DNA of 64,000 nucleotides from Candidatus Dojkabacteria bacterium (lineage in GTDB: Bacteria; Patescibacteriota; Dojkabacteria; B142; OLB20), in assembly GCA_046753765.1 (NCBI GenBank), contig JBHHUN010000005.1:4430-68429 (forward strand). Reading direction: 5' to 3'. How positions within the stretch are numbered: the stretch's first letter is position 1; the number at the start of each line of letters is the position of its first letter. A program made the position numbers and the translations under genes. A model generated the notes under the pieces. The model did not search any database and was not told the DNA's origin. It saw only the letters and a list, made by a program, of their open reading frames with translations. Of this stretch, positions 11,201 through 63,079 are shown piece by piece.

Positions 11201-11205
11201 TGCTG

Positions 11206-15808: not shown

Positions 15809-15878
15809 CGATCTAAGGCTAAATATTAGTGGTTTGCTTTGTTATAATAGCATATCTAGTTTTCAAATATAACAGACA

Positions 15879-46384: not shown

Positions 46385-46987
46385 TTGCTTTTACATGTTC
46401 CCGTGCAGGCAGCATGGACGTACGGTGATGATTATCCATATCCAAACGGGTCTGGTGTTGATCCCTGGAATATGTATATTAGACAGTGCACTTCTTACTC
46501 CGCTCACAAGGCAGATCAGATAATCGGGAACTTCAATAATCAAATGGAAGGACCAAATGGTACTTCCGGTACGTTTGGGAATGCAAAGAATTGGGATGAA
46601 AATGCAACTTCTATAGGATTCCCCGTGCTAACTTCACCGAAGGTGGGTACGATTACGTCTGTATACCAGAATAAAGAAGGCGCAGGAAACTACGGACACG
46701 TTGCATACATAGAAACCGTGCATACTAATGGGAAGTTTGATCTCTCAGAGTACAATTGGTGGCCTAATTCCCGGTCTTACAATGAAAGGTATAACCGCCA
46801 GAACTCACAGTGGTATACTTTCATTGACTTTGGAGGTGGCTCATGTAGTCCTTCCCCAAATCAGGATTGGATCATTACATCAGACTGTGAAATAACAAGC
46901 AATATTAACTTCGACTTTACAAATTACAAAATAGTTATTCAGAATGGAGCAAAACTTGACATCACAAACGGAGCGAAAATCTACTAA
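46385..46987 (+). CDS. CHAP-domain protein (cysteine/histidine-dependent amidohydrolase/peptidase)
   Basis: Catalytic Cys in RQCTSYSAHKADQ and His in YGHVAYIETV. A short C-terminal beta-repeat tail follows. Confidence 0.65.
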   Translation: MLLHVPVQAAWTYGDDYPYPNGSGVDPWNMYIRQCTSYSAHKADQIIGNFNNQMEGPNGTSGTFGNAKNWDENATSIGFPVLTSPKVGTITSVYQNKEGAGNYGHVAYIETVHTNGKFDLSEYNWWPNSRSYNERYNRQNSQWYTFIDFGGGSCSPSPNQDWIITSDCEITSNINFDFTNYKIVIQNGAKLDITNGAKIY

Positions 46988-49231: not shown

Positions 49232-50983
49232 ATGAAGTATCCTATTGGACTTATCACCGCCCTGATTTTTTTCACCGTCTCGGCTGTTGCAGCTCCGGTT
49301 GCAGCACAGAAGGCCACGGTCGAAAGCATCTCCACCGAAGTGACTTTTCACACCGACCTCACAGCATACGTTTCAACCACTCTCAAGCTTAAAAACAGGT
49401 CCGATCAGTATCTCCTTTCAGAGATTGCGTTTACTCTCCCAAGATCACCGCAAAATTTCAAGGCCAGGATAGACGACAGGTCAGTCTCCGCCGATATTAA
49501 AGGAAAAAAGGTTAATCTTAACCTTGGGTCTGGATCTATCGAGCTCAATCAAAAGGGGACGCTCGAGCTTGAGTATCAGTTGAAGGGTCTGGTTGAAGAC
49601 TTCGGAGTGATTAAAAGAATGAGTTGGCCCACAACAAGTTTCGCCCCTAAAAGAGGGGAACTTGGAAAGCTTGTGCAGAAAATCTCTTACCCATCAGAAT
49701 GGGGAGAGCTCACCTACAAATCAGGACAGCTCGAGAGTGAGCCTGGCATAGACGGTTTCACCTCTTTTTCTTCTACCACTGATGAAACGCTCAGTCTCGT
49801 TGCAGGTGGGTATACAAACGCAGAGCTCAGTATGGGTTGGCGGATCACTAATCAATTAGATGAGAGTATACGATTCAGGGTACCAGTTCCCGGAGAAAGT
49901 GTAGGGATGTTTAAGTTGGATAGCTATGAAGGTGCCAAGAGCGGTTTCATGGATGAAGAACAAAACAAGTTCCTGACTCTACATCTTGACTCAAATGTTG
50001 TGGCAGAGGGGAACTTCTCGGGAGTGTTTGGCAAAACAGGGTTTATGTTTAATGGAGAGGGAGATGGGCTTGTGCCCGACGGATTTCAGACAGACTGGCA
50101 ACAACTTGGAATCACAAAAGAAGATGCCGAAGGGATCTACAAAAAAATCTTAGAGAAACTTCACCCCAGTTTGATAAATAAGTTTAAAACGAGAAGCAAT
50201 GTGGCGGGCAGCCTATCAAAAGACGAGCACGACTCCCTCGATTACTCTAACCTGCTTGTTGCAGCGCTGCGTGGAAATGGAATCCAGTCAGAGATAGTTT
50301 TTGGTCTGGTGAACTTTCCTACAGACCAGACATACCATTGGCACTACTGGGTGGTTTATCGCGAAGGTAATCAGTGGAACCAGATAGATCCATTTCTCGA
50401 GGACCTCTCAGGCTTCGACTACTTCACACAGATTGATCAGCTGCGAATTCCCTGGGGTACAGTACCAAAAGACAATTCGACTGACAGCCTCGGCTTTAAT
50501 CATCTTGGGCTCACTAAAGATATCAAGTTTGATCCACCTGTAGTTGAGGGGGCTCAGCCCGACAGTGCAAAAGTCTTTGCATTGCTCGAGCTAACGGGAA
50601 ACGCGTACTCAGGGCAACCTCTCCCCCTGTTGCTTAGGGTAGTAAATGGCAGCAATGTGCCAGTTTCCTTAAGTGATATCTCAATCGAAAATGTGAAAGT
50701 TGCAACAGATGAAATTAACAGCTTCTGGATCATACCTCACACATCACAGCTCATTCAGGTTGATGAAATCAGTGTTAGTGATCCATTTTTCACTGGGGAG
50801 AAAACTGTCTCCGGTAGTATGAAAGTGCAACTGGATGATGAGACAAGGGTTCTGGATATCAGCCTCCCCCTTGATATTCAAGTGAATTATCAGATGCTTA
50901 GTGTGAATCTACTCATCCTTTTCCTTCTCTTAATTCTCGCTTCCGTCTTTGCCCGAAAAAGATTTCTCAATAAGGGGTTCTAA
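49232..50983 (+). CDS. Exported protein with transglutaminase-like core lacking the catalytic Cys (probable pseudo-enzyme), C-terminal TM anchor
   Basis: Signal peptide. DYSNLLVAALRGNGIQSEIVFGL resembles the TGase-core CxxFA...GIPAR motif with Cys replaced by Ser/Asn, followed by HYWVVY...WNQIDP. C-terminal TM LLILFLLLILASVFA. Confidence 0.4.
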   Translation: MKYPIGLITALIFFTVSAVAAPVAAQKATVESISTEVTFHTDLTAYVSTTLKLKNRSDQYLLSEIAFTLPRSPQNFKARIDDRSVSADIKGKKVNLNLGSGSIELNQKGTLELEYQLKGLVEDFGVIKRMSWPTTSFAPKRGELGKLVQKISYPSEWGELTYKSGQLESEPGIDGFTSFSSTTDETLSLVAGGYTNAELSMGWRITNQLDESIRFRVPVPGESVGMFKLDSYEGAKSGFMDEEQNKFLTLHLDSNVVAEGNFSGVFGKTGFMFNGEGDGLVPDGFQTDWQQLGITKEDAEGIYKKILEKLHPSLINKFKTRSNVAGSLSKDEHDSLDYSNLLVAALRGNGIQSEIVFGLVNFPTDQTYHWHYWVVYREGNQWNQIDPFLEDLSGFDYFTQIDQLRIPWGTVPKDNSTDSLGFNHLGLTKDIKFDPPVVEGAQPDSAKVFALLELTGNAYSGQPLPLLLRVVNGSNVPVSLSDISIENVKVATDEINSFWIIPHTSQLIQVDEISVSDPFFTGEKTVSGSMKVQLDDETRVLDISLPLDIQVNYQMLSVNLLILFLLLILASVFARKRFLNKGF

Positions 50984-51039: not shown

Positions 51040-51068
51040 TTGACAGAATTTGTTGTTTGAAACATAAT
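51040..51068 (+). promoter_or_regulatory. Candidate sigma-70 promoter (TTGACA-17-CATAAT) for the 51095 gene
   Basis: Perfect -35 at 51040-45, a 17-nt spacer, and -10 CATAAT at 51063-68, about 27 nt upstream of the ATG. Confidence 0.45.
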
Positions 51069-51094: not shown

Positions 51095-53692
51095 ATGGTA
51101 GGGAAGCCCAAGCAGTACGTAGTAAGTCTGTCACAGATCGATAAAGATGGCTCGAAGTTAGTAGGCGAAAGGGCCTTGTTACTGCGAGAGGTATCCGGCC
51201 ATGGCATTCCCGTTCCCTCCAGTTTTGTAATTACAACAGAAGCTTTCGACGACTTCATTATCGCTAACGACCTTGTTAGTTTTATCTCTGCGCATATCAA
51301 CGAAGTGGACTATACGAGCGAAAAGTCAGTTAGAAAAACTGCCAGCGCAATACAGTCAGCCATCGTTGAGGCAAAGGTGCCGGATCTTATTAAAAGTCCA
51401 CTTGAAAAGGTGTATTCCGGTATAGGAGGTCTGTTTGACGCCTTTGTCACCGTGCGGACATCTCCGGTTTTTCGCGAGCTGGATGAGGTTAACTACCACG
51501 AGCCCTACATAATCAACAATGTTAAGGGCAAGGGACACCTGCTCGACACTGCAAAAGAGCTCTGGGCAAGAATGTTTTCTCCTGAAGCACTGCTGTTCAG
51601 GGCAGCGCTTGGCTATGAGGGATCCATCACACAGGCACTGCTTGTCCAAAAGATGGTACAGGCAGAAGTATCAGGCAAAGTTTTTAGTGTTAACCCCGCG
51701 AATAACGACAAAGATGTCATTGAGGTTCAGGCAATTTTGGGCGTTAATGACCCCCAGGTATCTGCGGATCTGGTCCCCGACAGTTACTTTTACAACAAGC
51801 AGACAGAAGAGATTATTGAGAAAAAGATAGTTGGTCAGGATAACATGGTAGTCCGCAGAGGTCGAAGTCAAAATGGGAGTCCCAACACAAAAGTGGCGAT
51901 ATCTGAAATCTGGCAGAAAAAGCAAAAGATAGATGACCGCAACATAATTAATCTTGGTAGAATTACAAGTTTACTTGAACAGCTGTATAAGTCGGAGATA
52001 GAGATCGATTTTGCATTTGAGGCGGGAAGGCTCCAAGTGATCGAGATTACACCGATTGAAAAGGCAAGGACTGCCCGGAAGCTCAACATAGTAGAAGACC
52101 AGCTTCGACCGATCGTTGAGAAGTACCCGTCTATGGGGCAGAAGGTAAAACCTAGAAAACGAAATGTCAAAACAGCAGAAACTCCTGCAAAGGAGTCTGA
52201 TACGCCCAAGCAAAAAGAGAAAACGATGGATGATTATGTGAAAGAGGTTGAGAAAGCTCAGCAGGATGCACCGCTGCATCAGGAAAAACCAGATGGTGAT
52301 GTTAAATACGTCGGCGAAAAGATTGTGGTTGTTGTGAAGCCAAAGGATGAGCTTGACCAGATACTTGAAGGAACTGGCTGGGGAAAAGGGTTAAGCTTCG
52401 GTCTTGCACATTTTATATTGCAGGATGTTGACTGGCTTGGCCTTACAGGAGACGAGATTTTAGTAATTGAACGGTTGGACAAAAAACACTTGCAAGCAGT
52501 TAATAAATCAAAGGGCGTTGTCTTGAAGAGCGTGTTGAAAGAAGAAGAGTTACAGCTTATTAAAGTCCCAGTTCTCCACTCGGTGGACAAAGCGATGAAC
52601 GTGCTGCGCGAGAATGAGGTTATAACACTGGATCCTGAGGCTGGAGCTATCTACCTTGGTGCCGGGAAAGAACTTTCGGAGCAGCCTGAATCAGGTATAG
52701 ATCAGTCGGTTGCGACCGAAGGTGAAGGGGCGAAGGCAGAGAAAACGGCGCTGTTCCCCCGCCCGGTGATCCAGGAGGTAGTAGCGGAGCAGAAAAACGT
52801 CATAGAGACAACAGGTAAATTCTGGCAGATTTACAGTCCAGATGACCCCAAAGTTGAGCTACTCCATAGCAACGGAATGTTTATTGATCTCTCAAGATTT
52901 TACAAATCAGCGGGCTTGAGCCCCGAATACCTCCTGAGTGAACCGGATCAGCGCAGGGGATTTATGAAGAGTGTGATAACAGTTCTGGTACCCATGCTTC
53001 AGCAGCTCGAAAACAGGCAGGCAATACTGCAGGCAAGTGATATTCCACTCGAGGAGTTAAAACATCTAAAAGGCAGTGACCGCATGAACTACGATCATCG
53101 CTTTCTGTCAGGTGCTGGCAAGTTTGCAGCTGATCCAAATCTACTAAACATGGAGCTTGAGATACTGAGTATCCTCCGTAACCGCGAGTCTCTTAGGAAT
53201 TTATGGTTTTCAATACCAAGAGTTAATACAGCAAGTGAGCTCTCCGAAACAAAGAAAATAGTTTCATCATATGGATTTAGAAGATCTTCAACCTTTAAAT
53301 TGCTGGCGACAGTTTCAACTTCTCTTTCGGCGGTGTCAATTAAATCTATCGTTGAGAATGATGTCGATGGAGTTATTTTCGACTATGACAGTATAATGGA
53401 GGATCTGCTTGGACGTGGTGAGTACGAAATCGATGATAACCTAACGAAATTTTTCACCTGGCTGATCGAGACAGTAAATACAAACAGGGCAAAACCGTAT
53501 CTGTTGAATCACAAATACAGAATAGAAAAAGCTGCCCTAAGAGGTATGCTTGAAAAAGGGCTGAACAATTTTATCTTGACAAGGGATCAACTTTATCCTC
53601 ATAAACTGCTAATATCGAGTCTGGAAGTAAAAAGGATAGGAGTTAAAAAGAAACGTGGCAGAAAGAAGAAAAGGATCGATTACGGGTTTTAA
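51095..53692 (+). CDS. PEP synthase/PPDK N-terminal (ATP-grasp nucleotide-binding) domain protein with degenerate PEP-utilizer phospho-His domain and long unique C-terminus
   Basis: N-terminus VVSLSQIDKDGSKLVGERALLLREVSGHGIPVPSSFVITTEAF ... ALLVQKMVQAEVSGKVFSVNP ... IEIDFAFEAGRLQVIEITPI follows the PPDK_N pattern. A later segment (GVVLKSV ... IKVPVLHSVDKAMNVLRENEVITLDPEAGAIYLG) resembles the PEP-utilizers mobile domain but lacks the TSHAA His motif. Confidence 0.55.
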   Translation: MVGKPKQYVVSLSQIDKDGSKLVGERALLLREVSGHGIPVPSSFVITTEAFDDFIIANDLVSFISAHINEVDYTSEKSVRKTASAIQSAIVEAKVPDLIKSPLEKVYSGIGGLFDAFVTVRTSPVFRELDEVNYHEPYIINNVKGKGHLLDTAKELWARMFSPEALLFRAALGYEGSITQALLVQKMVQAEVSGKVFSVNPANNDKDVIEVQAILGVNDPQVSADLVPDSYFYNKQTEEIIEKKIVGQDNMVVRRGRSQNGSPNTKVAISEIWQKKQKIDDRNIINLGRITSLLEQLYKSEIEIDFAFEAGRLQVIEITPIEKARTARKLNIVEDQLRPIVEKYPSMGQKVKPRKRNVKTAETPAKESDTPKQKEKTMDDYVKEVEKAQQDAPLHQEKPDGDVKYVGEKIVVVVKPKDELDQILEGTGWGKGLSFGLAHFILQDVDWLGLTGDEILVIERLDKKHLQAVNKSKGVVLKSVLKEEELQLIKVPVLHSVDKAMNVLRENEVITLDPEAGAIYLGAGKELSEQPESGIDQSVATEGEGAKAEKTALFPRPVIQEVVAEQKNVIETTGKFWQIYSPDDPKVELLHSNGMFIDLSRFYKSAGLSPEYLLSEPDQRRGFMKSVITVLVPMLQQLENRQAILQASDIPLEELKHLKGSDRMNYDHRFLSGAGKFAADPNLLNMELEILSILRNRESLRNLWFSIPRVNTASELSETKKIVSSYGFRRSSTFKLLATVSTSLSAVSIKSIVENDVDGVIFDYDSIMEDLLGRGEYEIDDNLTKFFTWLIETVNTNRAKPYLLNHKYRIEKAALRGMLEKGLNNFILTRDQLYPHKLLISSLEVKRIGVKKKRGRKKKRIDYGF

Positions 53693-53743
53693 TTTAAGTT
53701 AGAAAGAAGAATTCTGTATAATCCTTACATAACTGATAAAAGA

Positions 53744-56700
53744 ATGATGCGACTTAAAACTCTGGCCGTATACTTGCTGAGTGCCTTGATTGTGTTGGGC
53801 ACTAACGTTATCCTTCTTCCGGTAAATAATGTCTCTGCACAATCTGAACCGGATGGTGCCGAAGAAGTTTTAGATCGTGCCGATGAGTACGATCTCGACC
53901 ATCTGTTTGTCAAATACAAAAATAGCGATGAACCTCAGTTGGTAGAAGTTGATCCTGCAAGCAATGGTCAGATAACGGTATTTTCGGAGAGTAATAAGTA
54001 TGATGGCGACATCGTCGAAAAGCAAGAGCGGCTCGCCGATAAATTCAATCAGCTTCTCGATAACCCGAGAGTTGAATACGTTCAACCTCAATACATTTAT
54101 TCAATTGGAGCCTGGAGCCGAAGCGGGACACAGGATACACCAGACGATTTTGATACGACATCACCGTATAACCATTGGTACTACGACGCATCTAATGTTC
54201 GCGAGATGTGGCAGGATCAGGACTGTCAGGGGGGCGGTGCAGGTTGTGGTGGAGATTCAAATGCTACTGTTGCTGTAATTGATACTGGCTTGGCATACGA
54301 ATCCAGAACTTCGGCCTGGGGAGACAGCTTTGCCCCAAATGATGACATGTTCGGAGGCAGTAATATCAATCTTTATACCAATACTGCTGAAATCAATGGC
54401 GATGCGGGCACCAACTGTTTTGATGAGATAGACGATGATGGTAATGGTTTTGTCGATGATTGCTATGGTTTTAATTCAGCAGAATACATCTACTGTTCCT
54501 TCACTACATCCTGCACAACAACCCAGGAGGCAGAGATGGGTCATCCAAATGATGATGGTGGACACGGAACATACGTAACTGGTCTAATAGCTTCGTTGGT
54601 GGATAACAACCTGGGGAGTGTCTCTCCTGCACATAATGTGACGATAATGCCGATCAAAGCTTCGTTTTTCCACTCCGGCTCGTTTGGTTCTATGGAGCTG
54701 TGGTGGGCGATTGACTATGCAGTTAATCAAGGGGCAGATGTTATTAATCTGAGCCTTGCTGGCCCTACCTTTGATCAGGGGTTGTCCGATAAGCTCCAGT
54801 GGGCAAAAGATAATGGGGTGACAGTTGTGGCAGCAACTGGAAATACTAACTCCAGCGTTTACTATCCAGCAGCTTTTGACTCTGTTATTGCTGTAGGAGC
54901 GGTAAGGCCAAATGGAACCCGAGCTTTTTATTCCAACTATGGGACTGATATTGATATCACTGCCTATGTCGGGAATGGAGGGGGGATAGGGGATACTGTC
55001 TATCAACGGAGTTATACCTGTTTCTTCCTTAATCCGAACTGCTATTCAACAAACGCGTATACCACATTTTCAAATGGTTATGGAATCGGTACCTCTTATG
55101 CGTCACCACAAGTTGCAGCGATGGTCGCGTTAATAATTTCTGCCAAGCCATCGATCACCAGGCAGGGAATAGATAACCACTTATTTGGCGATGCGACAGA
55201 TCTTGGTACAGTTGGCTGGGATAATCAGACAGGGTGGGGAGTAATCGATTTTGAAAAGACGTACAAAAATGTTTCCAGCAATGGAGCACCCACTTTGGCA
55301 ATCCTTGAGCCAAATGGAGTAGGTGATACTGGAGATACGTCTTTTAATATTACGTGGACAGACAGTGACCCTGACGATGATGCGGTGATCAATTTCTACA
55401 GGGATAATGATGGCGCCGGATTTGATGGCGTATTGATAAGCGGATGTGATAACATTGCCCAGTCAGCTGCTTCGGATACATGCAAATTCGACACAAGACC
55501 GCTGCCAGCAGATGATTACTACATCTACGGTTGCATAACTGACTATGTTAATCCACTCGACTGTAGCTACGGCGGAGGACCTATCACAATATCTCACACC
55601 CCCATCAGGGAGTTTGGTTTAGCTGTTGTCAGTACCGATTGGGTGCCAATATCGTTTCAGAAGACATACAGTGATCCGCCAATAGTATTCGCAGAGGTAT
55701 CAAGCGAGAATGGAACCAACAAGATATTTGCAGACATTAGAAACGTTACTTCCGCGGGCTTCGAAGTCAGGATAGAGGAGAACACAATGTCGGGATGGAA
55801 TGGGATACACGGAAACGAGGATATAAGCTGGTACGCAGTTCAAAGCAATACAGGAGCAGAAAAAGTTGGTGAATCCGTGATAAATACTGACTGGGTGAGT
55901 ATTGACTTTCTGACATCCTTTGCCAGCATTCCAGAGCTATTCGTCATGGTGCAGTCAGAGAATGGTGGCAATATTGTTTATGCTGATGTTAGAAATGTGA
56001 GTACAACAGGATTCGATGTCAGACTCGAAGAGCCAGTCGGTTGGAACGGGCTCCATTCAGATGAATCGGTTGGGTGGATTGCGTTTGAAACAAATCCCGT
56101 AACAGGCGGGCAGGAGGGCAAAGCCACAACGGATCAGGATTGGAGTACAGTATCTTTTACTCCAGCTTTTTCCGAGCCACCAGTGTTAATAGTCTCTGTT
56201 GATACGGAAAATGAGGGGAATTACGTAAATGCGGATATTCGTAACCTGGATGCAAACGGATTTGAGTTTATGATGGAGGAAGATATCCTAATCCAGAATG
56301 GTATCCATGGAGATGAGACCGTGAGCTGGGCTGCGTTTCCACTGAGTACAATCAATTCACAATCCGGAACCGTATCTATAAATAGTAACTGGACAGAGAT
56401 ATATTTTCCACAATCATTTGAGTCAAAACCGAAAGTTTTTGTTGAGATAAATACAGAAAACGGACAAGACACAGCTGAGGTAGACATAAAAGATGTAATG
56501 CCGTATTCATTTACGGCCAGGATAGAAGAAGATAAGCTTGCGGGTTGGGGAGCTGGCGGACACACTACAGAAACCATCACATGGTACGCAATTTTAAATC
56601 CCGGTTCGGGTGAACAGGTTGGAAATAGCAGCGTAGACCACAATTGGAAGACCGTAACCTTTTCCTCACCGTTTACTTCTACTCCAAAAGTCTTTGCGGA

Positions 56701-57100
56701 TGTGCAAACAGAAAACGGTGGTCAGACTGCAGCAGTCGATATGAAAAATATAACGACGACCGCATTCGAGGTCAAAGTAGAAGAGGATCCAAGAGCCGGA
56801 TATGATGGAAACCATGCGGTCGAAACTGTCTCATGGCTCGCGTTTGAGACACCCTCAATGGGAGAGACAGGTACAGTAGCTGTAGATCAGGACTGGACAG
56901 CGGTGGATCTGAGCAGCTTTGGTTTCAGCGGTGTGCCTAAATTACTGGCTGACATTCAGACCGAGAACGGAACCCACACTGTTCAGGTTGATATTCGAAA
57001 TCTCTCCAGTACCGGGTTTGATGTAAGAATGGAAGAGGAACCCAGGATATGGGATGGACTTCATGCTCTGGAAACGGTTTCTTGGCTGGCTTGGGAATAG
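53744..57100 (+). CDS. Secreted subtilisin-like serine protease (S8) with N-terminal propeptide-like region, Ig/FN3-like spacer and six C-terminal ~82-aa tandem repeats (possibly H-type-lectin-like)
   Basis: Signal peptide. S8 triad contexts TVAVIDTGLAYE (Asp), HGTYVTGLIAS (His), GTSYASPQVAAMVALI (Ser), and a calcium-loop-like EIDDDGNGFVDD. Six repeats of the pattern DxxW-x-V-x-F-(P/S)-x-F-x-P-x-V(F/L)...(Q/N)TENGG...VD(I/M)(R/K)N(V/I/L)(T/S)xxGF(E/D)V(R/K)(I/V/L/M)EE...G-x-H-x-(D/E)-x-(V/I)-(S/T/G)-W-(Y/L/I/A)-A-(V/F/I/W). Confidence 0.75.
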   Translation: MMRLKTLAVYLLSALIVLGTNVILLPVNNVSAQSEPDGAEEVLDRADEYDLDHLFVKYKNSDEPQLVEVDPASNGQITVFSESNKYDGDIVEKQERLADKFNQLLDNPRVEYVQPQYIYSIGAWSRSGTQDTPDDFDTTSPYNHWYYDASNVREMWQDQDCQGGGAGCGGDSNATVAVIDTGLAYESRTSAWGDSFAPNDDMFGGSNINLYTNTAEINGDAGTNCFDEIDDDGNGFVDDCYGFNSAEYIYCSFTTSCTTTQEAEMGHPNDDGGHGTYVTGLIASLVDNNLGSVSPAHNVTIMPIKASFFHSGSFGSMELWWAIDYAVNQGADVINLSLAGPTFDQGLSDKLQWAKDNGVTVVAATGNTNSSVYYPAAFDSVIAVGAVRPNGTRAFYSNYGTDIDITAYVGNGGGIGDTVYQRSYTCFFLNPNCYSTNAYTTFSNGYGIGTSYASPQVAAMVALIISAKPSITRQGIDNHLFGDATDLGTVGWDNQTGWGVIDFEKTYKNVSSNGAPTLAILEPNGVGDTGDTSFNITWTDSDPDDDAVINFYRDNDGAGFDGVLISGCDNIAQSAASDTCKFDTRPLPADDYYIYGCITDYVNPLDCSYGGGPITISHTPIREFGLAVVSTDWVPISFQKTYSDPPIVFAEVSSENGTNKIFADIRNVTSAGFEVRIEENTMSGWNGIHGNEDISWYAVQSNTGAEKVGESVINTDWVSIDFLTSFASIPELFVMVQSENGGNIVYADVRNVSTTGFDVRLEEPVGWNGLHSDESVGWIAFETNPVTGGQEGKATTDQDWSTVSFTPAFSEPPVLIVSVDTENEGNYVNADIRNLDANGFEFMMEEDILIQNGIHGDETVSWAAFPLSTINSQSGTVSINSNWTEIYFPQSFESKPKVFVEINTENGQDTAEVDIKDVMPYSFTARIEEDKLAGWGAGGHTTETITWYAILNPGSGEQVGNSSVDHNWKTVTFSSPFTSTPKVFADVQTENGGQTAAVDMKNITTTAFEVKVEEDPRAGYDGNHAVETVSWLAFETPSMGETGTVAVDQDWTAVDLSSFGFSGVPKLLADIQTENGTHTVQVDIRNLSSTGFDVRMEEEPRIWDGLHALETVSWLAWE
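55625..57097 (+). repeat. Six in-frame tandem ~82-aa domain repeats within the first S8 protein
   Basis: Repeats begin at VSTDWVPISF, INTDWVSIDF, TDQDWSTVSF, INSNWTEIYF, VDHNWKTVTF, VDQDWTAVDL and each ends with VSW/ITW + A. Confidence 0.7.
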
Positions 57101-57116
57101 TTAATACTATAAACAC

Positions 57117-60100
57117 ATGTTGTTTGTACGAAGACATTTACCTCTAATTGTATTTTCATTATTCTGGATTTTTGCAGCCGGAGCGCTGTTTATGTTGTCG
57201 GATTGGAACGTAACAGGGCAGGTTCTGGTAGGAAATCAGGCTAAAGCCAGAGAGATTGTCAATCGCAGCAGGGATTTTGACCTGAACAATGTGGTTGTTG
57301 TCTATAAAGACGAGCCGGATGAGGTAAGGCTAATCTCTGTTTCCGATACCGTCGAGACACGATCTTCAGGAGAGAGAACCGAGATAGCTGACCTCTACAT
57401 CACTGGTGAGATTGATCCCGACCTTTTTGAAATACAACAGAAGAAATCCAGGCTCGAACAAAAGATATACGATCTGCTCGAGGACGAGAGCGTGCTCCAC
57501 GTTCAGCCTCAATACATCTACCACACGAATTCATGGGGACGCTCTGGCAGTCAGGATACCCCTGATGACTTTGATACGATTTCGCCAACTACTGGTGAGC
57601 ACTGGTACTACGAGATGGCCCACCTTCGTGAAATGTGGCAGGACCAGGATTGTTTTGGTAGCGGGCCAAATTGCGGAGGAAATACCGGAGGCGTAGTTGC
57701 TGTAATAGACACAGGGCTGGCATATGAGACAAGAAAATCAGCATGGCAGGATAATTTTGCAAAGAACGATGATATGTTCAACGGAACCAGTATCACTCTC
57801 TATACCAACGCGGGAGAGATACCTAATAACCTTATTGACGATGATGGTAACGGTTACCGAGATGATTACAACGGCTTCAACGCCGACGATTACGTTTTTT
57901 GTCTCCCCCCCGAACCTCAGGATCCACCGTGTACGACCGCAGAGTGGGCCGAGGAGGGGCATGCTTACGACGATGACGGGCACGGAACATACACAACCAG
58001 CATGATAGCTTCATTGGTAGATAACACTTTTGGTAGTGTATCCCCGGGGTTCAATCTCACGATAATGCCAATTAAGGCCTCTGATTTTCACTCACCCAGT
58101 TTTGGTACGGCTGAGCTTGTTGCCGCTATTGACTACGCCATGAACAACGGTGCCGATGTAATAAATATGAGTCTTGGCGGGCCGACTGATGATCCTGTAT
58201 TGAGCGCCAAAATCGACGAGGCAGTTGCAGCAGGCGTATTTGTTGTCGCTGCAAGTGGTAATGGGGGAGGTGCTGTAGGGTATCCAGCAGCAAACACAGG
58301 CACATTTGCAGTTGGCGCCGTTGCTGCCGATGATGCCAGGGCTTGTTACTCCAGTTTTGGAGCAGAACTTGATATGGTGGCCTATGTTGGTGACGGTGAT
58401 GGTTCGTGCCCTATCTCTGTTATAGGAGAGGGGACGGCGGCTTATCAAAGAACTTACTCCTGTTTTTTCACTTCGCCCGACTGTAATGATCTAGGTGGCA
58501 GTGAAGACTACGAGACGTTTTCGACAAGCTATAGTCTTGGTACATCATTTGCCGCTCCGCAGGTATCTGCGATGGCAGGAATCCTAAGAGCGATTGGCCC
58601 AAGCACGCCAGTTTCAGAGCTTGAATCTATCCTTATAGGTAATGCAACCGACCTAGGGCCCGCAGGGTTTGATACTGCTACCGGCTATGGTGTTTTGGAT
58701 TGGGAGGCGACATTTGCAGCTGCTATTGCCAGTGAAGCACCGACCTTATCGGTCATAGAGCCAAATGGGGTCGGCGATGGTGCAGATGCATCATTTAACA
58801 TCACCTGGACTGATACAGACTCTGATAACGACGCAGCAATCAACTTCTATTACGATCTTGACTCCTCAGGGGAGGATGGAACCTTAATAGCAGACTGCTC
58901 TAACATTAGTGAGGACGATGAAACAGACAGTTGTACGTGGGATATGCGGTTTATGCCCGAAGACGACTATTACATCTATGGATGCATTGCAGACTTCTTT
59001 AACCCTGTAGATTGCAATAACTACGGCGCTGGTCCAATAACTTTAACTCACGCTGTTAAACGCGACTGGAACACACATACTGTAACTACAAGCTGGAGAA
59101 CTATCAGTTTTACAACCAGTTTTGACACTGTTCCAATAGTAAGTGCACAGATTACATCAGAATGGGGAAGGGATAGAATCTATCTGGATGTAAAAGATGT
59201 AACTATAAGTGGGTTTAGTACACGAATACGAGAAAACACTGTTACAGGATGGAATGGTGGTCATGGAAGTGAGGAGTTGAGCTGGTACGCTGTTCAAAGC
59301 ACCAGTACGGGAGAAATTGTAGGTCAGATAGATCTCACTGGCCCGGGATGGACTAGTGTAACTTTTCCACAGGCATTCGGGTCAACGCCTCATGTGTTTG
59401 CTAACCTTCAAACCCAGAACGATACAGCGATCGCCTATGTTGATCTGAGAAACATCACAACCACGGGTTTTGAAGCCAGGATAGAAGAGCCGACGGGGCT
59501 TGCAAATGACCACGCAACAGAAACGGTTGGCTGGGTGGCATTCAGTGATCACCCCGATGCTGAAGAGGGCAGTGTTATAGCGAATCATGTGCGCAAGACT
59601 GTGACATATGCTACTTCGTTTACTGCACCACCTGTGCTGCTAGCGCAGATTCAGACCAACAACGACGGAAGAAGATCAACGGTCGATGTAGGCGGAACAA
59701 AGGACTACCGCAGCAGGCTTTGGGTAGGAGAGGATACGAAAGTGCATGATGGAATTCATGATAACGAAACAATAAGCTGGGCGGCGTTCCCTTATACACC
59801 GCCTAACGATGTAGGAGTTGCTCAGTCCCTCACTGACGACTGGACAGAATACCCATTCGACCAGCCCTTTGAGGACACGCCAAAGATGTTCGCTGATATT
59901 AACTCTGAAAATGGGACGGACACAGTAGATGTTGACCTGAGAAAAATTACAAGGCGTAGCTTTCAAGCCAGGATTGAGGAGGATCCGAAGGCGGGATGGA
60001 ACAACAAACACATGGACGAGGATATAACCTGGTATGCTTTTTATATAAGACCCACAGGTAGCAAAAACGGTAACCTAACCACAAATCAAAACTGGACTAA

Positions 60101-60548
60101 CTCTGGAATAGGTGGTGGCGGATTTGGTTCGACACCGATGGTGTTTGCCGAGATTCAAACAGATAATGGAGGTGATACGGCAGCAGTAGATGTTAAGGCT
60201 ATCACCCCGACAGGCATGAAGCTCAGAGTAGAAGAGGATAAAGTAGCTGGCCATAACGGCAATCACACAAATGAAACAATCTCATGGTGGGGTTTCACAT
60301 CTGCACCCTTCGGTCAAGCGGGTCTGGATTCAGTTGATCACAACTGGAAAACGGTAACATTTCCGATTGCGTTTAGTACCGTCCCCAAATTGCTTTTTGA
60401 AGTAAACAGTGAAAATGGCGGGCAAACAGCTATGGTAGATGTACGCAACATCACTACTGCTGATTTTGAAGTGAGAGTGGAGGAAGAGCCAAAAAGATAC
60501 GATGGGAGCCATGCTTTCGAAGATGTGGTCTGGCTCGCCTGGGAGTAA
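57117..60548 (+). CDS. Paralogous secreted S8 subtilisin-like protease with the same architecture (six C-terminal ~82-aa repeats)
   Basis: Only 16 bp after the first copy. VVAVIDTGLAYE, HGTYTTSMIAS, GTSFAAPQVSAMAGIL and DDDGNGYRDD. Six repeats ending at VVWLAWE, the same C-terminal end as copy 1 (VSWLAWE). Confidence 0.75.
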   Translation: MLFVRRHLPLIVFSLFWIFAAGALFMLSDWNVTGQVLVGNQAKAREIVNRSRDFDLNNVVVVYKDEPDEVRLISVSDTVETRSSGERTEIADLYITGEIDPDLFEIQQKKSRLEQKIYDLLEDESVLHVQPQYIYHTNSWGRSGSQDTPDDFDTISPTTGEHWYYEMAHLREMWQDQDCFGSGPNCGGNTGGVVAVIDTGLAYETRKSAWQDNFAKNDDMFNGTSITLYTNAGEIPNNLIDDDGNGYRDDYNGFNADDYVFCLPPEPQDPPCTTAEWAEEGHAYDDDGHGTYTTSMIASLVDNTFGSVSPGFNLTIMPIKASDFHSPSFGTAELVAAIDYAMNNGADVINMSLGGPTDDPVLSAKIDEAVAAGVFVVAASGNGGGAVGYPAANTGTFAVGAVAADDARACYSSFGAELDMVAYVGDGDGSCPISVIGEGTAAYQRTYSCFFTSPDCNDLGGSEDYETFSTSYSLGTSFAAPQVSAMAGILRAIGPSTPVSELESILIGNATDLGPAGFDTATGYGVLDWEATFAAAIASEAPTLSVIEPNGVGDGADASFNITWTDTDSDNDAAINFYYDLDSSGEDGTLIADCSNISEDDETDSCTWDMRFMPEDDYYIYGCIADFFNPVDCNNYGAGPITLTHAVKRDWNTHTVTTSWRTISFTTSFDTVPIVSAQITSEWGRDRIYLDVKDVTISGFSTRIRENTVTGWNGGHGSEELSWYAVQSTSTGEIVGQIDLTGPGWTSVTFPQAFGSTPHVFANLQTQNDTAIAYVDLRNITTTGFEARIEEPTGLANDHATETVGWVAFSDHPDAEEGSVIANHVRKTVTYATSFTAPPVLLAQIQTNNDGRRSTVDVGGTKDYRSRLWVGEDTKVHDGIHDNETISWAAFPYTPPNDVGVAQSLTDDWTEYPFDQPFEDTPKMFADINSENGTDTVDVDLRKITRRSFQARIEEDPKAGWNNKHMDEDITWYAFYIRPTGSKNGNLTTNQNWTNSGIGGGGFGSTPMVFAEIQTDNGGDTAAVDVKAITPTGMKLRVEEDKVAGHNGNHTNETISWWGFTSAPFGQAGLDSVDHNWKTVTFPIAFSTVPKLLFEVNSENGGQTAMVDVRNITTADFEVRVEEEPKRYDGSHAFEDVVWLAWE
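59070..60545 (+). repeat. Six in-frame tandem ~82-aa domain repeats within the second S8 protein
   Basis: Repeats begin at NTHTVTTSWRTISF, LTGPGWTSVTF, ANHVRKTVTY, LTDDWTEYPF, TNQNWTNSGIGGGGFGSTPMVF, VDHNWKTVTF. Confidence 0.65.
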
Positions 60549-60623
60549 TGCAATATTGCTGTAGAAACAACGATGTAAGATATAATTAACTCAGACACTG
60601 ATAAAACGTATTAGTGAATAACA

Positions 60624-62183
60624 ATGACCATACTGCGGAAAAACAAAACATTTCTAATCTTGATCCTGTTGATCTGGGGAGCACTGCTGTTAGTGGGTGT
60701 TCAGGCGGGGGCTCCTGACCCTGAGCCGGCTGGCACAGTGGAAGACGTAAACTCAGGTGAAGTTACTCCACCAGAGACATTGGGAGTAATTGCAACCTCA
60801 AGTCCAACCCCGACACTACCTCTAGATAATGAAGTATCTGAAGAAATCGAAGATACCAGTGCTCCGAGCCCGAAACAAAGCACAAAACCAAAATCTCCCG
60901 GAGCTACGAAATCACATCAGGAGAACGATTCGGGAGAAATCGACACACTAAATTTGGGAGATCTAGCGTCTGGCAGCTTCTTGTTCTCCGTAGACGAAGA
61001 TTTCTCGGCCTACGGCTTTCAGTGGGAAAGCGGATCGTTCACCTTCTCCTGGGATGGGATTAACTACCAGCCACCGACTTTGTTAGGCGAGCACGTAAGA
61101 GACAACTATGCTGGTCAGAAGGCAACTAATCTGTATTTTGGTGCCCCCGATTCTAAGAAGCTATATATAAAAACTGGTCGCGTAAGCGACCTCAAGCTCA
61201 GTTTAATAACACCAACAGAAAGCGATGATGGATTTGGTATTGCGGCAGGTGTAGCTGACTATATGGGGGCAACCTATACAGAGCTCCCAATAATCTCGCG
61301 AGCGCAGTGGGGGGCTGATGAGTCAAAAGCGTTGTGGGATCCATCTTATGGTCCGATTCAGAGAATCATTGTCCATCATACAGCCGGATCAAACAGCGCG
61401 AGCAACTGGGATGCTGTTGTGAGATCAATTTTTAACTACCACGCTGTAACCCTTGACTGGGGGGACATTGGCTATAACTACCTTATTGCCCCTAACGGAA
61501 ACATCTATGAAGGACGTAAAGGAGGGGAGGGAGCGACAGCCGCCCATACTTACCTGCATAACTATGGAAGTATAGGAATTGCCATGATAGGAACCTACTC
61601 CAGTGTACCGCCGAGCAGTGCCGCAATGGATTCGCTAAAAAGACTGATCGCAGAAAAATCTGCGGTTCATAATATCGACACAGTGACCTGGCAGTCAAAC
61701 TACTATGGTCACCGTGACTGGAACTCAACCACATGTCCTGGTACCACTTTATATGGAATTCTTCCGAATAAGGCCAACTGGATTAATTCCCACCAGGACA
61801 GTCAGTATCCTGAGGTCTTTGCAGCCCGTGCAGCCGCGGAACTGGCGTATGATGCTGCTAACCCTTTCCCAACACCACAAAAAACTGATCTCGTGATAAC
61901 GTTTGATCGACCATTCACAGTAAGTGAAGCTGAGATACAAGCAATGATCCCGCCATATAGCGGCATAAAAGTAAGTGGCGTATTCGGGAATAAGGTCCAT
62001 CTAACACTGATTAAATACTACGATGGGGGCTCACAGTTTATGGACTTCAGGTCCAAACTTCTACGCACTCTTTTCAGCCTTGATGGTGAGGTGAAGGATA
62101 TTGAGTATGTCGGCGACTTCTTCATCTTTGACGAAAATCTGGGTACACCGACTCCCACGCCATCCCCATCACCGACACCATAG
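60624..62183 (+). CDS. N-acetylmuramoyl-L-alanine amidase (Amidase_2/PGRP domain), TM-anchored with PT-rich linker and C-terminal domain of unknown function
   Basis: PGRP-like domain SRAQWGADESKALWDPSYGPIQRIIVHHTAGSN ... GDIGYNYLIAPNGNIYEGR ... HRDWNSTTCPG. N-terminal TM helix, a PT/S linker, and a C-terminal PTPTPSPSPTP tail. Confidence 0.75.
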   Translation: MTILRKNKTFLILILLIWGALLLVGVQAGAPDPEPAGTVEDVNSGEVTPPETLGVIATSSPTPTLPLDNEVSEEIEDTSAPSPKQSTKPKSPGATKSHQENDSGEIDTLNLGDLASGSFLFSVDEDFSAYGFQWESGSFTFSWDGINYQPPTLLGEHVRDNYAGQKATNLYFGAPDSKKLYIKTGRVSDLKLSLITPTESDDGFGIAAGVADYMGATYTELPIISRAQWGADESKALWDPSYGPIQRIIVHHTAGSNSASNWDAVVRSIFNYHAVTLDWGDIGYNYLIAPNGNIYEGRKGGEGATAAHTYLHNYGSIGIAMIGTYSSVPPSSAAMDSLKRLIAEKSAVHNIDTVTWQSNYYGHRDWNSTTCPGTTLYGILPNKANWINSHQDSQYPEVFAARAAAELAYDAANPFPTPQKTDLVITFDRPFTVSEAEIQAMIPPYSGIKVSGVFGNKVHLTLIKYYDGGSQFMDFRSKLLRTLFSLDGEVKDIEYVGDFFIFDENLGTPTPTPSPSPTP

Positions 62184-62212: not shown

Positions 62213-63079
62213 TTACTCAGGGATAGGGGATTCTATCTTGTTTGGAACCCCGTAATCCCAGAACCGGCCGTTTTCGTTGAACCCCTTCTCTTCGAAGTTA
62301 CGGAAATAGACTATCTGATAATCTTCGTTAACCTTTACCTGCACTATTGTCTCAACAAGTTGGTTGAAGTCATTAACTTTTTCGCCTTCGGCAGTCAGGA
62401 CACGAACCCTCTGTGTGCCGCGCTGCTCAAATGACGACTCAATAGTTTGTTGTGACTGGATCAGATCGACGACATCAACAATGGCAGTCTGTGCTGATGG
62501 TGTTATCGTTGCTTTTTCCCATGGACTCTCTGAGTTAGATGCGTTGTAGAAGAAGGCAGTGTTTCCAATTCTGTACTCTGCAGGCGGAGGATCAAACTTC
62601 ATCCCATCTGAACATACCTGTGCAAGAAAGTAAGACGTAAAACTTTTATTTGGAGAGGTGTGCTCCGAGTAGGATCCATAGCATTCATCTTTAGTAAGAT
62701 CAGAGAAGTCTCCAGTGGCTTTGAAGTGCTTAGTTTTTCCGAGCTCGATCTCCAGTGAGGTTAAAAAATCACGCGATTCGCAATCCTGGAAACACTTCTG
62801 CAATCTCGTAAGCTCTTCTTCGGGTGTTTCGGTAATCTCCGGCGTGGGCGTTGGTGAATCCGTTGGGATTGGCGTGACCACTGGTCCTGGTGTGGATCCT
62901 TGTTGCCCCATAAGGGCAATCACTCCGCACAGTAAGAGAAGGTTTAATACAGCTGAAAATATCAATATTGATTTAAGGTAGCTAGCATCGTTGAAGATTG
63001 ATTTAAGGGTTAATCCTGATTTTGGGCCAATCAGTTCTTCTTGAACGACTTCACTGGGATTCTGGGAGTCAGACGACAT
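62213..63079 (-). CDS. TM-anchored exported protein with PT-rich linker, unknown function
   Basis: 288 aa; TM ILIFSAVLNLLLLCGVIALM, linker PVVTPIPTDSPTPTPEITETPEEE, then a Cys-containing soluble domain. Confidence 0.4.
   Translation of the reverse strand: MSSDSQNPSEVVQEELIGPKSGLTLKSIFNDASYLKSILIFSAVLNLLLLCGVIALMGQQGSTPGPVVTPIPTDSPTPTPEITETPEEELTRLQKCFQDCESRDFLTSLEIELGKTKHFKATGDFSDLTKDECYGSYSEHTSPNKSFTSYFLAQVCSDGMKFDPPPAEYRIGNTAFFYNASNSESPWEKATITPSAQTAIVDVVDLIQSQQTIESSFEQRGTQRVRVLTAEGEKVNDFNQLVETIVQVKVNEDYQIVYFRNFEEKGFNENGRFWDYGVPNKIESPIPE

Follow-up and report, generated by a model that had tools for sequence, protein, structure and literature searches.

Modular wall hydrolases, such as autolysins and phage endolysins, combine a catalytic domain with repeated wall-binding domains. 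H-type lectins (Helix pomatia agglutinin, discoidins I and II, and coral SLL-2) and the related fiber knobs of phages and R-type pyocins are built as homotrimers, each chain having a single domain. PpsA, pyruvate phosphate dikinase, and offshoots such as rifampin phosphotransferase and PigC/RedH share the order ATP-grasp, swivel, and TIM barrel, while the subtilases fervidolysin, Vpr, and Tk-SP have a signal peptide, an I9/fervidolysin-like prodomain, a D-H-S triad, and C-terminal beta-rich domains. Among the Patescibacteria, envelope proteins that carry glycan-binding domains are essential in a cultured Saccharibacterium and were proposed to target host glycans (PMC10633639), and the CPR predator Vampirococcus has secreted peptidoglycan hydrolases, proposed to degrade the host wall (PMC8080830).

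The locus compared here lies in a 64,000-nucleotide stretch of Candidatus Dojkabacteria DNA (the window). A preliminary description had read four consecutive plus-strand genes as one coherent surface-protein unit in a reduced genome. Its sequence-level observations (ORFs, promoter, domains, and repeats) were all borne out, including the coordinates of the four ORFs and the 16-bp gap (57101-57116) between the two subtilase genes, S8a and S8b; Pfam profile scores upheld its domain calls for all four proteins, and the source is indeed a Patescibacteria lineage, whose complete relatives have genomes of 0.89 to 1.17 Mb. The gap between the gene for the PEP-synthase-like protein (PPSL) and S8a is 51 bp, and that between S8b and the amidase gene is 75 bp. 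We nevertheless consider it probable that the locus comprises two separate things, namely, PPSL with its upstream neighbors and a three-gene envelope-hydrolase cassette (53744-62183). The features are as follows.

49232..50983, plus strand: membrane-anchored transglutaminase-like (TGase-like) gene, conserved upstream partner of PPSL
51040..51068, plus strand: PPSL promoter TTGACA-17-CATAAT, sigma-70 type, 11/12 positions
51095-53692, plus strand: PPSL ORF, 865 aa
53645..53689, plus strand: conserved C-terminal tail of PPSL, KKKRGRKKKRIDYGF, nearly invariant in 13 homologues
53715..53722, plus strand: extended -10 element TGTATAAT, 21 nt upstream of the S8a start
53744-57100, plus strand: S8a ORF, 1118 aa
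55607..57097, plus strand: S8a lectin array, six repeats organized as (ABC)x2
57117-60548, plus strand: S8b ORF, 1143 aa
59064-60545, plus strand: S8b lectin repeats
60581..60586, plus strand: TATAAT in the S8b-amidase spacer, candidate internal promoter
60624-62183, plus strand: amidase ORF, 519 aa
62213..63079, minus strand: downstream flank gene, 288-aa membrane-anchored protein

Residues 22 to 333 of PPSL match PPDK_N in Pfam (E = 8e-43), in agreement with the PPDK/PEP-synthase N-terminal domain reported earlier, and the protein aligns with PEP synthase 9dae from end to end. PPSL thus resembles the PpsA group in its domain order, in homology over the full length, and in a strongly conserved PPDK_N. 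The ATP-grasp domain (residues 22 to 333) is followed by a variable charged linker, a swivel remnant without His (about residues 418 to 525), a TIM-barrel remnant (about residues 575 to 846), and a polybasic tail (residues 851 to 865). The long charged linker and the conserved tail are additions not seen in the PpsA group; the tail, KKKRGRKKKRIDYGF, was confined to the C-termini of PPSL orthologues among ~1000 locus proteins and in the six-frame translation of the window. Unlike the PpsA group, PPSL lacks the phosphocarrier His, the catalytic Cys, and NDLTQ: in the alignment, the phospho-His motif GGxT(S/C)HA, already noted as missing, is replaced by a 4-residue deletion and KSVLKEE, and neither NDLTQ nor CGQ is found. 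Conservation is also missing at the GGK and Mg-ligand positions of the ATP-grasp domain. The NCBIfam PEP synthase score of PPSL is 181.7, against a cutoff of 598, and the protein falls far below every NCBIfam equivalog cutoff. Based on the motif losses, these low scores, and the full-length homology to 9dae, PPSL is predicted to be a catalytically dead, full-length relative of PEP synthase. With neither a hydrophobic segment nor any Cys, the protein is predicted to be cytoplasmic. PPSL would be a relic of PEP synthase in which the phosphocarrier His and the catalytic residues of the PEP/pyruvate site are gone and the ATP-grasp phosphate and Mg ligands are no longer conserved. Since the ATP-grasp domain is its best-conserved part, PPSL may still bind nucleotides.

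The promoter that the preliminary description had placed before PPSL is the best sigma-70 match within 48.5 to 64 kb. Promoter-like matches in this region do not exceed expectation (19 found versus 23.9 expected from shuffling), but a -35/-10 pair recurs about 47 to 56 nt upstream of the orthologous PPSL start codon in 7 loci, suggesting that this promoter is more than a chance match. The extended -10 element TGTATAAT probably gives the cassette a promoter of its own: the PPSL-S8 spacers of the window, L001/L083, and L082 have diverged elsewhere but all retain TCTGTATAAT, and L081 has TTGTTATAAT instead. With this conserved element before S8a, the promoter at 51040 is not needed to explain cassette expression. 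The TATAAT at 60581..60586 could conceivably act as an internal promoter; a -10 hexamer is also present in the corresponding spacers of L081 (TGCTATAAT) and L082, and the L001 spacer is just 12 bp long. No terminator-like site was found on the plus strand between the four genes, and their order is perfectly conserved in six genomes, so PPSL and the cassette may be cotranscribed by read-through.

In a synteny comparison of more than 80 related loci, the order gltX-TGase-PPSL was kept in at least 10 genomes (L001 to L009 and L013). The TGase-like protein matches Transglut_core (Pfam; E = 5e-6) and has an N-terminal signal, a C-terminal transmembrane segment, and zero Cys. In contrast, the S8-S8-amidase genes follow PPSL in only about six close relatives within one Candidatus Dojkabacteria lineage (the window, L001/L083, L008, L081, and L082), where the four-gene order is perfectly conserved even though the GltX proteins are only about 60% identical. 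In L002 to L007, L009, and L013, PPSL accompanies gltX and the TGase-like gene without the cassette. In one of these loci (L003), it directly adjoins a homologue of the downstream flank gene, whose 288-aa product had no match in Pfam, NCBIfam, PHROG, or PADLOC, and in another (L005), a 1898-aa SpaA-repeat protein occupies the cassette position. About 40 further loci have PPSL in quite different contexts (AI-2E transporter and MutS), and in L084 to L086, S8-lectin genes reside without PPSL and without the amidase in glycan synthesis and export clusters containing Wzm/Wzt, glycosyltransferase, sulfotransferase, and PAPS-synthesis genes.

On the basis of this synteny, L003, L005, and L084 to L086 in particular, and of the separate conserved promoter elements, we separate PPSL from the cassette. 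The coherent four-gene unit proposed earlier thus holds in its gene order, conserved in about six genomes, but that conservation is confined to a single narrow clade, and the membership of PPSL had to be abandoned, as its association with gltX and the TGase-like gene spans at least 10 genomes and that with the cassette about 6. PPSL, with its own conserved promoter, would belong with the upstream gltX and TGase-like genes rather than with the downstream genes, and 53744-62183 would be a clade-specific cassette of two anciently duplicated pro-subtilases followed by a PGRP-type amidase. One cotranscribed surface or host-interaction system of four genes, in which PPSL would serve, e.g., as a cytoplasmic regulator or energizer, would account for the shared strand, the short gaps (51, 16, and 75 bp) without a plus-strand terminator-like site, and the identical order in genomes with diverged GltX. 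We consider it decidedly improbable, given that PPSL occurs without the cassette and in about 40 loci of other contexts, that cassette genes and fused proteins occur without PPSL, that the cassette has a conserved -10 of its own, and that a cytoplasmic PPSL is set beside three exported proteins.

S8a and S8b match Peptidase_S8 (E = 1e-37 and 2e-32) and H_lectin (E = 4e-28 and 9e-23) in Pfam. They are collinear and 46.7% identical, and both have N-terminal signal-like segments, which supports the earlier reading of two paralogous secreted subtilases. S8a consists of a signal segment (residues 4 to 30), an I9-like prodomain (about residues 38 to 120), an S8 catalytic domain (residues 172 to 499; D180, H274, N367, and S451), a Cys-rich beta-sandwich spacer (residues 516 to 616), and six H-type-lectin repeats (residues 622 to 1118). 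S8b has the same architecture (D198, H289, N382, and S477; lectin repeats at residues 650 to 1143). The two proteins resemble fervidolysin, Vpr, and Tk-SP in signal peptide, prodomain, triad, and C-terminal beta-rich domains, but they end in a lectin array instead of a stabilizing or sorting domain and have a lineage-specific Cys-rich insertion in the catalytic domain and an N-terminal QPxYIY...W motif. The catalytic triad and the oxyanion Asn are invariant across 17 S8 homologues, as are ten Cys columns (S8a and S8b have 12 Cys each). The AF2 model of S8a (pLDDT, 78.7) gave subtilisins as Foldseek matches (TMt, about 0.82). In the phylogenetic tree, the first-position and second-position S8 genes of different genomes form separate clades, indicating that the duplication is older than the split of these genomes; the pair is kept in every cassette-bearing genome.

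The six tandem repeats noticed earlier at the end of each subtilase proved to be H-type-lectin repeats of about 83 aa. Those of S8a and S8b are positionally orthologous, S8b repeat 3 being the most degenerate. The repeat consensus forms an (ABC)n super-repeat, and the repeat number is a multiple of three (3, 6, 9, 12, 18, or 24) in 134 of the 150 top-scoring proteins of the representative library. Structure prediction, which had been suggested as a check, gave a confident fold (pTM, 0.84). The structural matches are homotrimeric lectins and phage or pyocin receptor binders, the best ones being receptor-binding domains of phage tailspikes and fibers and R-type pyocins. From the pTM, the repeat counts, and the trimeric structural neighbors, we infer that the six repeats fold as two single-chain pseudo-trimers. 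Whereas the known H-type lectins and knobs are homotrimers of single-domain chains, in the two subtilases three differentiated repeats of one chain appear to stand in for the trimer, twice, and sequence identity to the known proteins is only 13% to 19%. H-lectin arrays were found in 5112 representative proteins, where fn3, PKD, RTX, and metalloproteases are among their partners, and elsewhere fusions join them to the peptidoglycan-directed SpoIID domain. The closest structural relatives include receptor binders of phages and pyocins, which fits a foreign-cell target equally well.

Residues 242 to 373 of the amidase match Amidase_2 (E = 8e-20; 72 bits versus a cutoff of 26), and its closest solved relatives in the PDB are animal PGRPs (E = 6e-25), so the PGRP-type assignment stands. 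This domain (HH251-252, Y284, H363, and C371) is preceded by a signal or anchor segment, an acidic/Pro-rich linker, and an unassigned domain (about residues 100 to 220) and is followed by another unassigned domain at the C-terminal side and a PT-rich tail. The sequence TCPG contains the Zn-ligand Cys, which the noncatalytic PGRP-LCx in that alignment lacks, and the PHROG matches are endolysin and amidase families. The protein is predicted to be an exported, zinc-dependent N-acetylmuramoyl-L-alanine amidase of the PGRP/T7-lysozyme type. It had been described as membrane anchored, and it does have one N-terminal hydrophobic segment (residues 6 to 32), followed by VQA/GA, but an anchor is indistinguishable here from a cleavable signal peptide. 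Judged by their sequences, the catalytic residues of both subtilases and of the amidase are intact, and all three proteins, each with an N-terminal signal-like segment, are predicted to be exported.

A cassette of two exported proteases and an amidase is in itself fairly ordinary. A functional link between subtilase and amidase appears real, because both occur fused in one chain elsewhere: Amidase_2 and S8 are combined with FG-GAP in P0113, P0121, and P0123 and with six H_lectin repeats in P0285 and P0287, the latter two being 38% to 39% identical to S8a residues 88 to 1118 and 41% to 43% identical to the amidase domain. This S8 subfamily also occurs in fusions with many alternative binding modules (FG-GAP/VCBS and DUF5648). 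The cell-envelope setting described earlier was confirmed, as neighbors with envelope roles in the window include FtsZ/A/Q, a Mur ligase, FemAB, and a CHAP hydrolase and, in relatives, Acyl_transf_3. In a genome this small and gene dense, nearness to wall-synthesis genes does little to indicate a self target. The cassette resembles modular wall hydrolases in its exported Amidase_2 with intact Zn ligands, its repeated carbohydrate-binding module, its position among wall-synthesis and division genes, and the joining of its modules in one chain elsewhere. It differs in that its binder is an H-type-lectin triplet array and not SH3b, LysM, choline-binding, or SLH; in that this binder is attached, in the window, to the subtilase and not to the amidase; and in its pairing of serine protease and amidase, which is unusual for the class.

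The cassette is best read as encoding exported, glycan-docked envelope hydrolases, with lectin sugar specificity, protease substrates, and protein location all predicted. The lectin arrays would anchor the enzymes to a bacterial envelope glycan that carries N-acetyl-hexosamine, either peptidoglycan or a secondary wall polymer, where the amidase would strip stem peptides and the subtilases would cut wall-associated proteins or peptides. Since genes for wall and surface-glycan synthesis are recurrent neighbors of the cassette genes, we tentatively favor the cell's own envelope over that of a host as the docking surface. It seems somewhat unlikely that the lectin pseudo-trimers recognize a surface polysaccharide of the presumed episymbiont's bacterial host and deliver the proteases and amidase to breach or feed on the host envelope, in the manner of phage tail fibers or R-type pyocins. 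The receptor-binding domains among the best structural matches would fit such a role, as would the dependence of Patescibacteria on hosts, the host-directed proposals for Saccharibacterium and Vampirococcus (PMC10633639; PMC8080830), the varied binding modules of the S8 subfamily, as expected for diversifying target recognition, and the retention of the ancient S8 pair. However, every locus examined has an own-wall or own-glycan synthesis context, H-lectin arrays are a common feature of secreted enzymes in many bacteria without an episymbiotic lifestyle, and there was no sign of hypervariability or of a diversity-generating element. The cassette proteins resemble the Saccharibacteria envelope proteins (PMC10633639) in coming from Patescibacteria, in being exported with lectin-like modules, and in having been linked, speculatively, to the binding or degradation of cell-surface glycans, but they belong to another phylum-level lineage and carry lectin arrays where those proteins have VCBS, dockerin, and fn3.

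Nutrient scavenging, with the subtilases as general extracellular proteases supplying amino acids to an auxotrophic cell, the lectins merely as tethers to glycoproteins or biofilm polymers, and the amidase as an unrelated adjacent housekeeping autolysin, is improbable. It would agree with catalytic domains closest to broad-specificity subtilisins, with the widespread occurrence of S8 and binding-domain arrays among secreted degradative proteases, and with S8-lectin genes lacking an adjacent amidase in some genomes, but the amidase and this S8 subfamily have been fused independently, in combination with two different binding modules, which points to a substrate in common, and H-lectin arrays are also fused to SpoIID. 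It is hardly credible that the cassette is left over from a lysis and receptor-binding module of a prophage or tailocin: phage endolysin families match the amidase and tail fibers share the lectin fold, but no other phage genes are present, core chromosomal genes flank the cassette, its position is kept in diverged genomes, the GC content of the cassette (0.46 to 0.48) is unremarkable against a window mean of about 0.45, and the subtilases have classical prodomains and signal peptides. The window also contains a sigma-70 gene (34546-35646).

The four successive plus-strand genes named in the preliminary description were all returned by the ORF list, with identical coordinates. These genes, their neighbors, and the sequence elements within them are as follows.

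Features of the window around the four genes
46385-46987, CHAP-domain wall hydrolase (200 aa), just upstream of gltX
49232-50983, transglutaminase-like (TGase-like) protein with a signal peptide and a C-terminal membrane anchor
51095-53692, plus strand, PEP-synthase-like protein PPSL (865 aa)
53645-53689, polybasic C-terminal tail of PPSL, KKKRGRKKKRIDYGF (residues 851-865)
53715-53722, conserved extended -10 element, TGTATAAT, in the 51-bp spacer between PPSL and S8a
53744-57100, plus strand, first subtilase, S8a (1118 aa)
55607-57097, six-repeat array of S8a
57117-60548, plus strand, second subtilase, S8b (1143 aa)
59064-60545, six-repeat array of S8b
59556-59804, repeat 3 of S8b, degenerate relative to the other eleven repeats
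60624-62183, plus strand, amidase (519 aa)
62213-63079, minus strand, 288-aa membrane protein

The four genes had been read as one coherent surface-protein unit, and this did not hold when other genomes were compared. A scan for PPSL relatives that took a single genome from each species gave 80 loci, all ORFs of which were compared with the window proteins; with look-ups of homologue-bearing contigs, about 90 loci were covered. The two subtilase genes and the amidase gene (the cassette, 53744 to 62183) follow PPSL only in the window and at loci L001/L083, L008, L081, and L082 (about six genomes), while the parts occur separately elsewhere. The wider gene order common to the cassette loci is Mur ligase, FemAB, gltX, TGase-like, PPSL, S8, S8, and amidase, ending with the oppositely oriented gene for the 288-aa membrane protein; at L082 and L083, an Acyl_transf_3 gene comes next. 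PPSL was found without the cassette at eight or more close loci and at about 40 that are distant, and in the more distant Dojkabacteria (about 40 loci), the PPS-like gene, whose product lacks the phosphohistidine, is flanked by genes for an AI-2E transporter and MutS. At locus L003, the gene for the homologue of the 288-aa protein adjoins PPSL directly and the cassette is absent, and at L005 (12682 to 18378), a 1898-aa protein of SpaA-type prealbumin-fold repeats is encoded at the cassette position. Genes for large surface proteins may thus vary at the site 3' of PPSL. The adjacency of gltX, TGase-like, and PPSL is kept in 10 genomes or more, with PPSL identities of 27% to 45%. Full-length S8-lectin homologues with neither PPSL nor an amidase gene nearby were located at three loci.

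S8-lectin homologues at loci separate from PPSL and the amidase gene
L084, 10001-16812, tandem pair
L085, 10001-13387
L086, 6316-9723

The clusters at these three loci also encode a Wzm/Wzt-type ABC exporter, glycosyltransferases, sulfotransferases, APS kinase, and ATP sulfurylase, which hints that the S8-lectin proteins may recognize a (sulfated) surface glycan of the same cell.

The promoter elements are likewise separate. The proposed TTGACA-17-CATAAT promoter at 51040 to 51068 was recovered with 11 of 12 positions matching, as the top match in the 15.5 kb scanned, a region in which promoter-like sites in total showed no excess over the shuffled expectation. The position of this -35/-10 pair upstream of PPSL is kept in seven loci. 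The extended -10 element TGTATAAT is common to the window, L001/L083, and L082, the rest of these PPSL-S8a spacers having diverged, and a TATAAT sequence lies upstream of the amidase gene in three loci. No meaningful terminator was found between the genes on the plus strand of the four-gene block; transcription may read through from PPSL into the cassette. From the synteny pattern and the conserved separate promoter elements, we conclude that PPSL goes with the genes upstream of it and that S8-S8-amidase is a separate, clade-specific cassette placed between PPSL and the gene for the 288-aa protein. For annotation, the lesson is that, in a genome that is small and dense, gene order mimicked one system and that multilocus comparison split the four genes. 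The complete genomes of relatives measure 0.89 to 1.17 Mb, and therefore the assumption of a reduced patescibacterial genome stands. Base composition gave no hint of recent horizontal transfer.

Peptidase_S8 and H_lectin domains were confirmed by Pfam in both subtilase paralogues, far over the gathering scores (Peptidase_S8, 130 and 113.4 bits versus a cutoff of 21.8). The catalytic residues, in Asp-His-Ser order with an oxyanion Asn, are D180/H274/N367/S451 in S8a and D198/H289/N382/S477 in S8b, and this set is invariant together with ten cysteines in 17 subtilase homologues. Both proteins start with a hydrophobic signal segment. The prodomain is beta-alpha-beta in the AF2 model, with relatives matching the fervidolysin prodomain family, and a beta-sandwich spacer precedes the six repeats. 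In Foldseek searches, the catalytic domain resembled classical subtilisins (TMt, about 0.82); since the protease domain dominates, the full-length S8a search gave subtilisins only, and the lectin array was modeled apart from full-length S8a. The top NCBIfam match, the type VII secretion mycosin (TIGR03921), was rejected at 122.8 and 94.8 bits versus a cutoff of 278.75, with no type VII secretion genes near the subtilase genes; PatA/PatG and dentilisin identities were also rejected, at scores far under the NCBIfam cutoffs. S8a and S8b are collinear and share 46.7% identity. In a neighbor-joining tree, the first-position subtilases of four genomes form one clade and the second-position ones fall in others, and the repeats of S8a and S8b are positionally orthologous, indicating that the duplication and the six-repeat array are older than the split of these genomes. 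Both copies have been retained since the duplication.

Six tandem repeats of ~82 aa had been assigned to each subtilase, and an iterative profile search delimited the same number, at about 83 aa each. The H-type lectin domain (PF09458) was identified in the arrays by a profile match over threshold as well as by the six-stranded beta-sandwich fold. The AF2 model of S8a residues 622 to 1118 had a mean pLDDT of 90.7 and a pTM of 0.84. Structural matches to the array were discoidin I (9.7), Helix pomatia agglutinin (9.4; root mean square deviation, 1.9 Å over 74 of 99 residues), the R2 pyocin fiber (8.9), the coral lectin SLL-2 (8.6), and other phage fiber knobs, all of which are known as homotrimers; among viral predicted structures, the matches were tail fibers and proteins annotated as "H-type lectin domain." A profile built from the 12 repeats of the window was searched against 1.84 billion representative proteins and matched 5112 of them, P0281 to P0423 among these. 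Repeat number was 3, 6, 9, 12, 18, or 24 in 134 of the best 150 matches, and the consensus from 57 multiple-of-three proteins revealed an (ABC)n order of three differentiated repeat types. The window arrays conform to this order, with repeats 1 and 4 sharing "WYA" and repeats 3 and 6 sharing a one-residue loop deletion.

For an array of six domains, a pTM of 0.84 is a high value, which speaks for fixed packing in the model and against beads on a string. From this value and the multiple-of-three rule, we infer that the packing is trimer-like, with each repeat triplet probably forming a single-chain pseudo-trimer and two of these present per subtilase. The rule suggests single-chain versions of a lectin and phage receptor-binder fold that is otherwise homotrimeric, and it offers a handle for glycan-binding work. 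H-type lectins bind N-acetylgalactosamine (PMC8878817). Repeat 3 of S8b lacks several residues that the other eleven repeats conserve, among them a Trp close to the start, the ENG-motif Glu, and the Arg/Lys that follows the invariant Asp; as judged from the sequence, one lobe of the first S8b triplet may be nonbinding. In the 57 proteins, the arrays were combined with fn3 (9 proteins), S8 (7 proteins), and also metalloprotease, RTX, and PKD domains; separate scans found them joined to SpoIID and to peptidase C25 as well. This variety of partners suggests that H-lectin arrays serve secreted enzymes in general as targeting modules; on these domain predictions, the combination of S8 with H-lectin is recurrent and not unique.

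The Amidase_2 domain predicted in the last gene was confirmed by Pfam (72 bits versus a cutoff of 26). The zinc ligands His, His, and Cys and the catalytic Tyr are present (HH251-252, H363, C371, and Y284), and animal PGRPs are the nearest solved relatives. The product is thus a predicted PGRP-type N-acetylmuramoyl-L-alanine amidase, in line with the preliminary description, which had also called it membrane anchored; the single N-terminal hydrophobic segment, followed by VQA/GA, could be either a signal peptide or an anchor. No family match was obtained for the flanks of the Amidase_2 domain (about 200 residues on each side).

Gene fusions link the subtilases and the amidase. Among the relatives of S8a, the database proteins P0113, P0121, and P0123 are single chains of 1200 to 1320 aa with the order Amidase_2-S8-FG-GAP/VCBS; P0121 shares 40% identity with the window amidase domain and 31% with S8a, including the subfamily-specific N-terminal motif. 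The search with the 12-repeat profile also recovered P0285 (1316 aa) and P0287 (1497 aa), each a single chain that joins Amidase_2 and S8 to six H-lectin repeats, with 38% to 39% identity to S8a residues 88 to 1118 and 41% to 43% identity to the amidase domain. The P0285 gene is solitary at its locus and has no PPS-like neighbor. DUF5648 and FG-GAP/VCBS are alternative accessory modules common to the S8 and Amidase_2 domains in this lineage. The fusions therefore point to a functional link between subtilase and amidase, and they show that the predicted subtilase, PGRP-type amidase, and H-lectin array would act together in several uncultured bacteria. In the open-access literature, neither this combination, nor the triplet rule of bacterial H-lectin repeats, nor the His-less family of PEP-synthase relatives was found described; no paper on the proteins of the window or on Dojkabacteria surface proteases was found, only general context.

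For PPSL, the PPDK_N assignment was verified by Pfam far over the gathering score (147 bits). Alignment with solved PEP synthases spans the full length, and the ATP-grasp, swivel, and C-terminal TIM barrel are all discernible. Every NCBIfam equivalog cutoff was missed by far (PEP synthase, 181.7 versus 598), and PF00391 and PF02896 were not detected in the protein. The reported absence of the phosphohistidine motif was correct but understated, as further centers also look degenerate in alignment with canonical synthases. In the same alignment, GGRT(S/C)HA is replaced by a four-residue deletion and KSVLKEE. The phosphocarrier His is present in none of eight family members aligned with true PEP synthases, and a regular-expression scan found GGxT(S/C)HA neither at the closest loci (L001 to L009 and L013) nor in ~60 PPS-like locus proteins, canonical synthases and L010 set aside. 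PPSL and its relatives also lack the C-terminal NDLTQ and the CGQ catalytic cysteine in the alignment and motif scan, and the ATP-grasp GGK lysine and Mg-ligand positions differ between aligned family members; thus, all three catalytic centers look degenerate. Having lost all recognizable catalytic residues, yet being kept by Dojkabacteria with its own conserved promoter, PPSL is a candidate pseudoenzyme.

PPSL has no hydrophobic segments and no cysteines and is therefore predicted to be cytoplasmic. Its tail, KKKRGRKKKRIDYGF, belongs to a KKRGRKKKxIDYGF pattern in which the majority of residues are invariant in 13 homologues; it was found nowhere else in the locus proteins or the window and is confined to the PPSL family, of which more distant members end in ...EEAKIILSKK in its place. 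The tail could be a membrane-binding or nucleic acid-binding peptide. At L010 (3007 to 10456), in a distant Patescibacteria genome, the genes run in the order TGase-like, PPS-like, and then enolase and phosphoglycerate mutase. This PPS-like protein retains the phosphohistidine motif (GGVTSHA) and lacks NDLTQ and CGQ; it is a possible intermediate in enzyme decay and is consistent with descent of PPSL from a working enzyme of PEP metabolism.

The cassette proteins combine signal-like export segments, intact catalytic residues, the lectin fold, and triplet repeats, and each can be assigned to a well-known family. In the proposed mechanism, the lectin arrays would dock the enzymes onto an envelope glycan carrying N-acetyl-hexosamine, where the amidase would strip stem peptides and the subtilases would cleave proteins or peptides associated with the wall. 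The cassette would then work as modular autolysin and endolysin systems do, except that both its binding module and its protease partner are unusual. Two further readings were rejected: as a defense system, because PADLOC gave a generic subtilase match and nothing more, and as a prophage, because the PHROGs matches were generic (endolysin, amidase, protease, and lectin) and no phage genes flank the cassette.

The envelope acted upon could be that of the producer or that of a host. Context favors the producer's own envelope, since the genes are recurrently placed among those for wall and surface-glycan synthesis and export; in the window, FtsZ/A/Q, Mur ligase, FemAB, and CHAP genes provide this setting. 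Two points favor a host envelope: the lectin array resembles the receptor binders of phages and pyocins, and parallel proposals exist for other Patescibacteria. The two targets are compatible, as the enzymes could sit on the producer's surface and act at the contact zone. If the lectins recognize host surfaces, this would bear on the attachment and feeding of ultrasmall episymbionts. A more specific version, which we consider unlikely, is that the arrays are pseudo-trimers like phage fiber and pyocin knobs that aim the protease pair and the amidase at the host envelope, with the two paralogues directed to two host glycans; the cassette would in that case belong to the apparatus with which an uncultured episymbiont attaches and feeds.

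Elsewhere in the window, an 841-aa ORF (16868 to 19393, minus strand) gave no Pfam match at an E value of ≤1e-5. At L008 (candidate division WS6 bacterium OLB20; 10004 to 16464), the PPS-like gene is split into two ORFs (554 and 280 aa) and the first subtilase gene likewise (711 and 521 aa), by either sequencing frameshifts or early pseudogene formation. The TGase-like protein of the window contains no cysteine, which makes the Cys-His-Asp chemistry of its family impossible; two apparently dead enzymes, PPSL and the TGase-like protein, are thus neighbors kept together in at least 10 genomes. The stretch immediately before gltX also encodes a FemAB-family transferase and a Mur ligase (43554 to 46365). 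The substrates of FemAB enzymes are aminoacyl-tRNAs, and the adjacency of FemAB to the glutamyl-tRNA synthetase gene, gltX, may therefore be worth noting.
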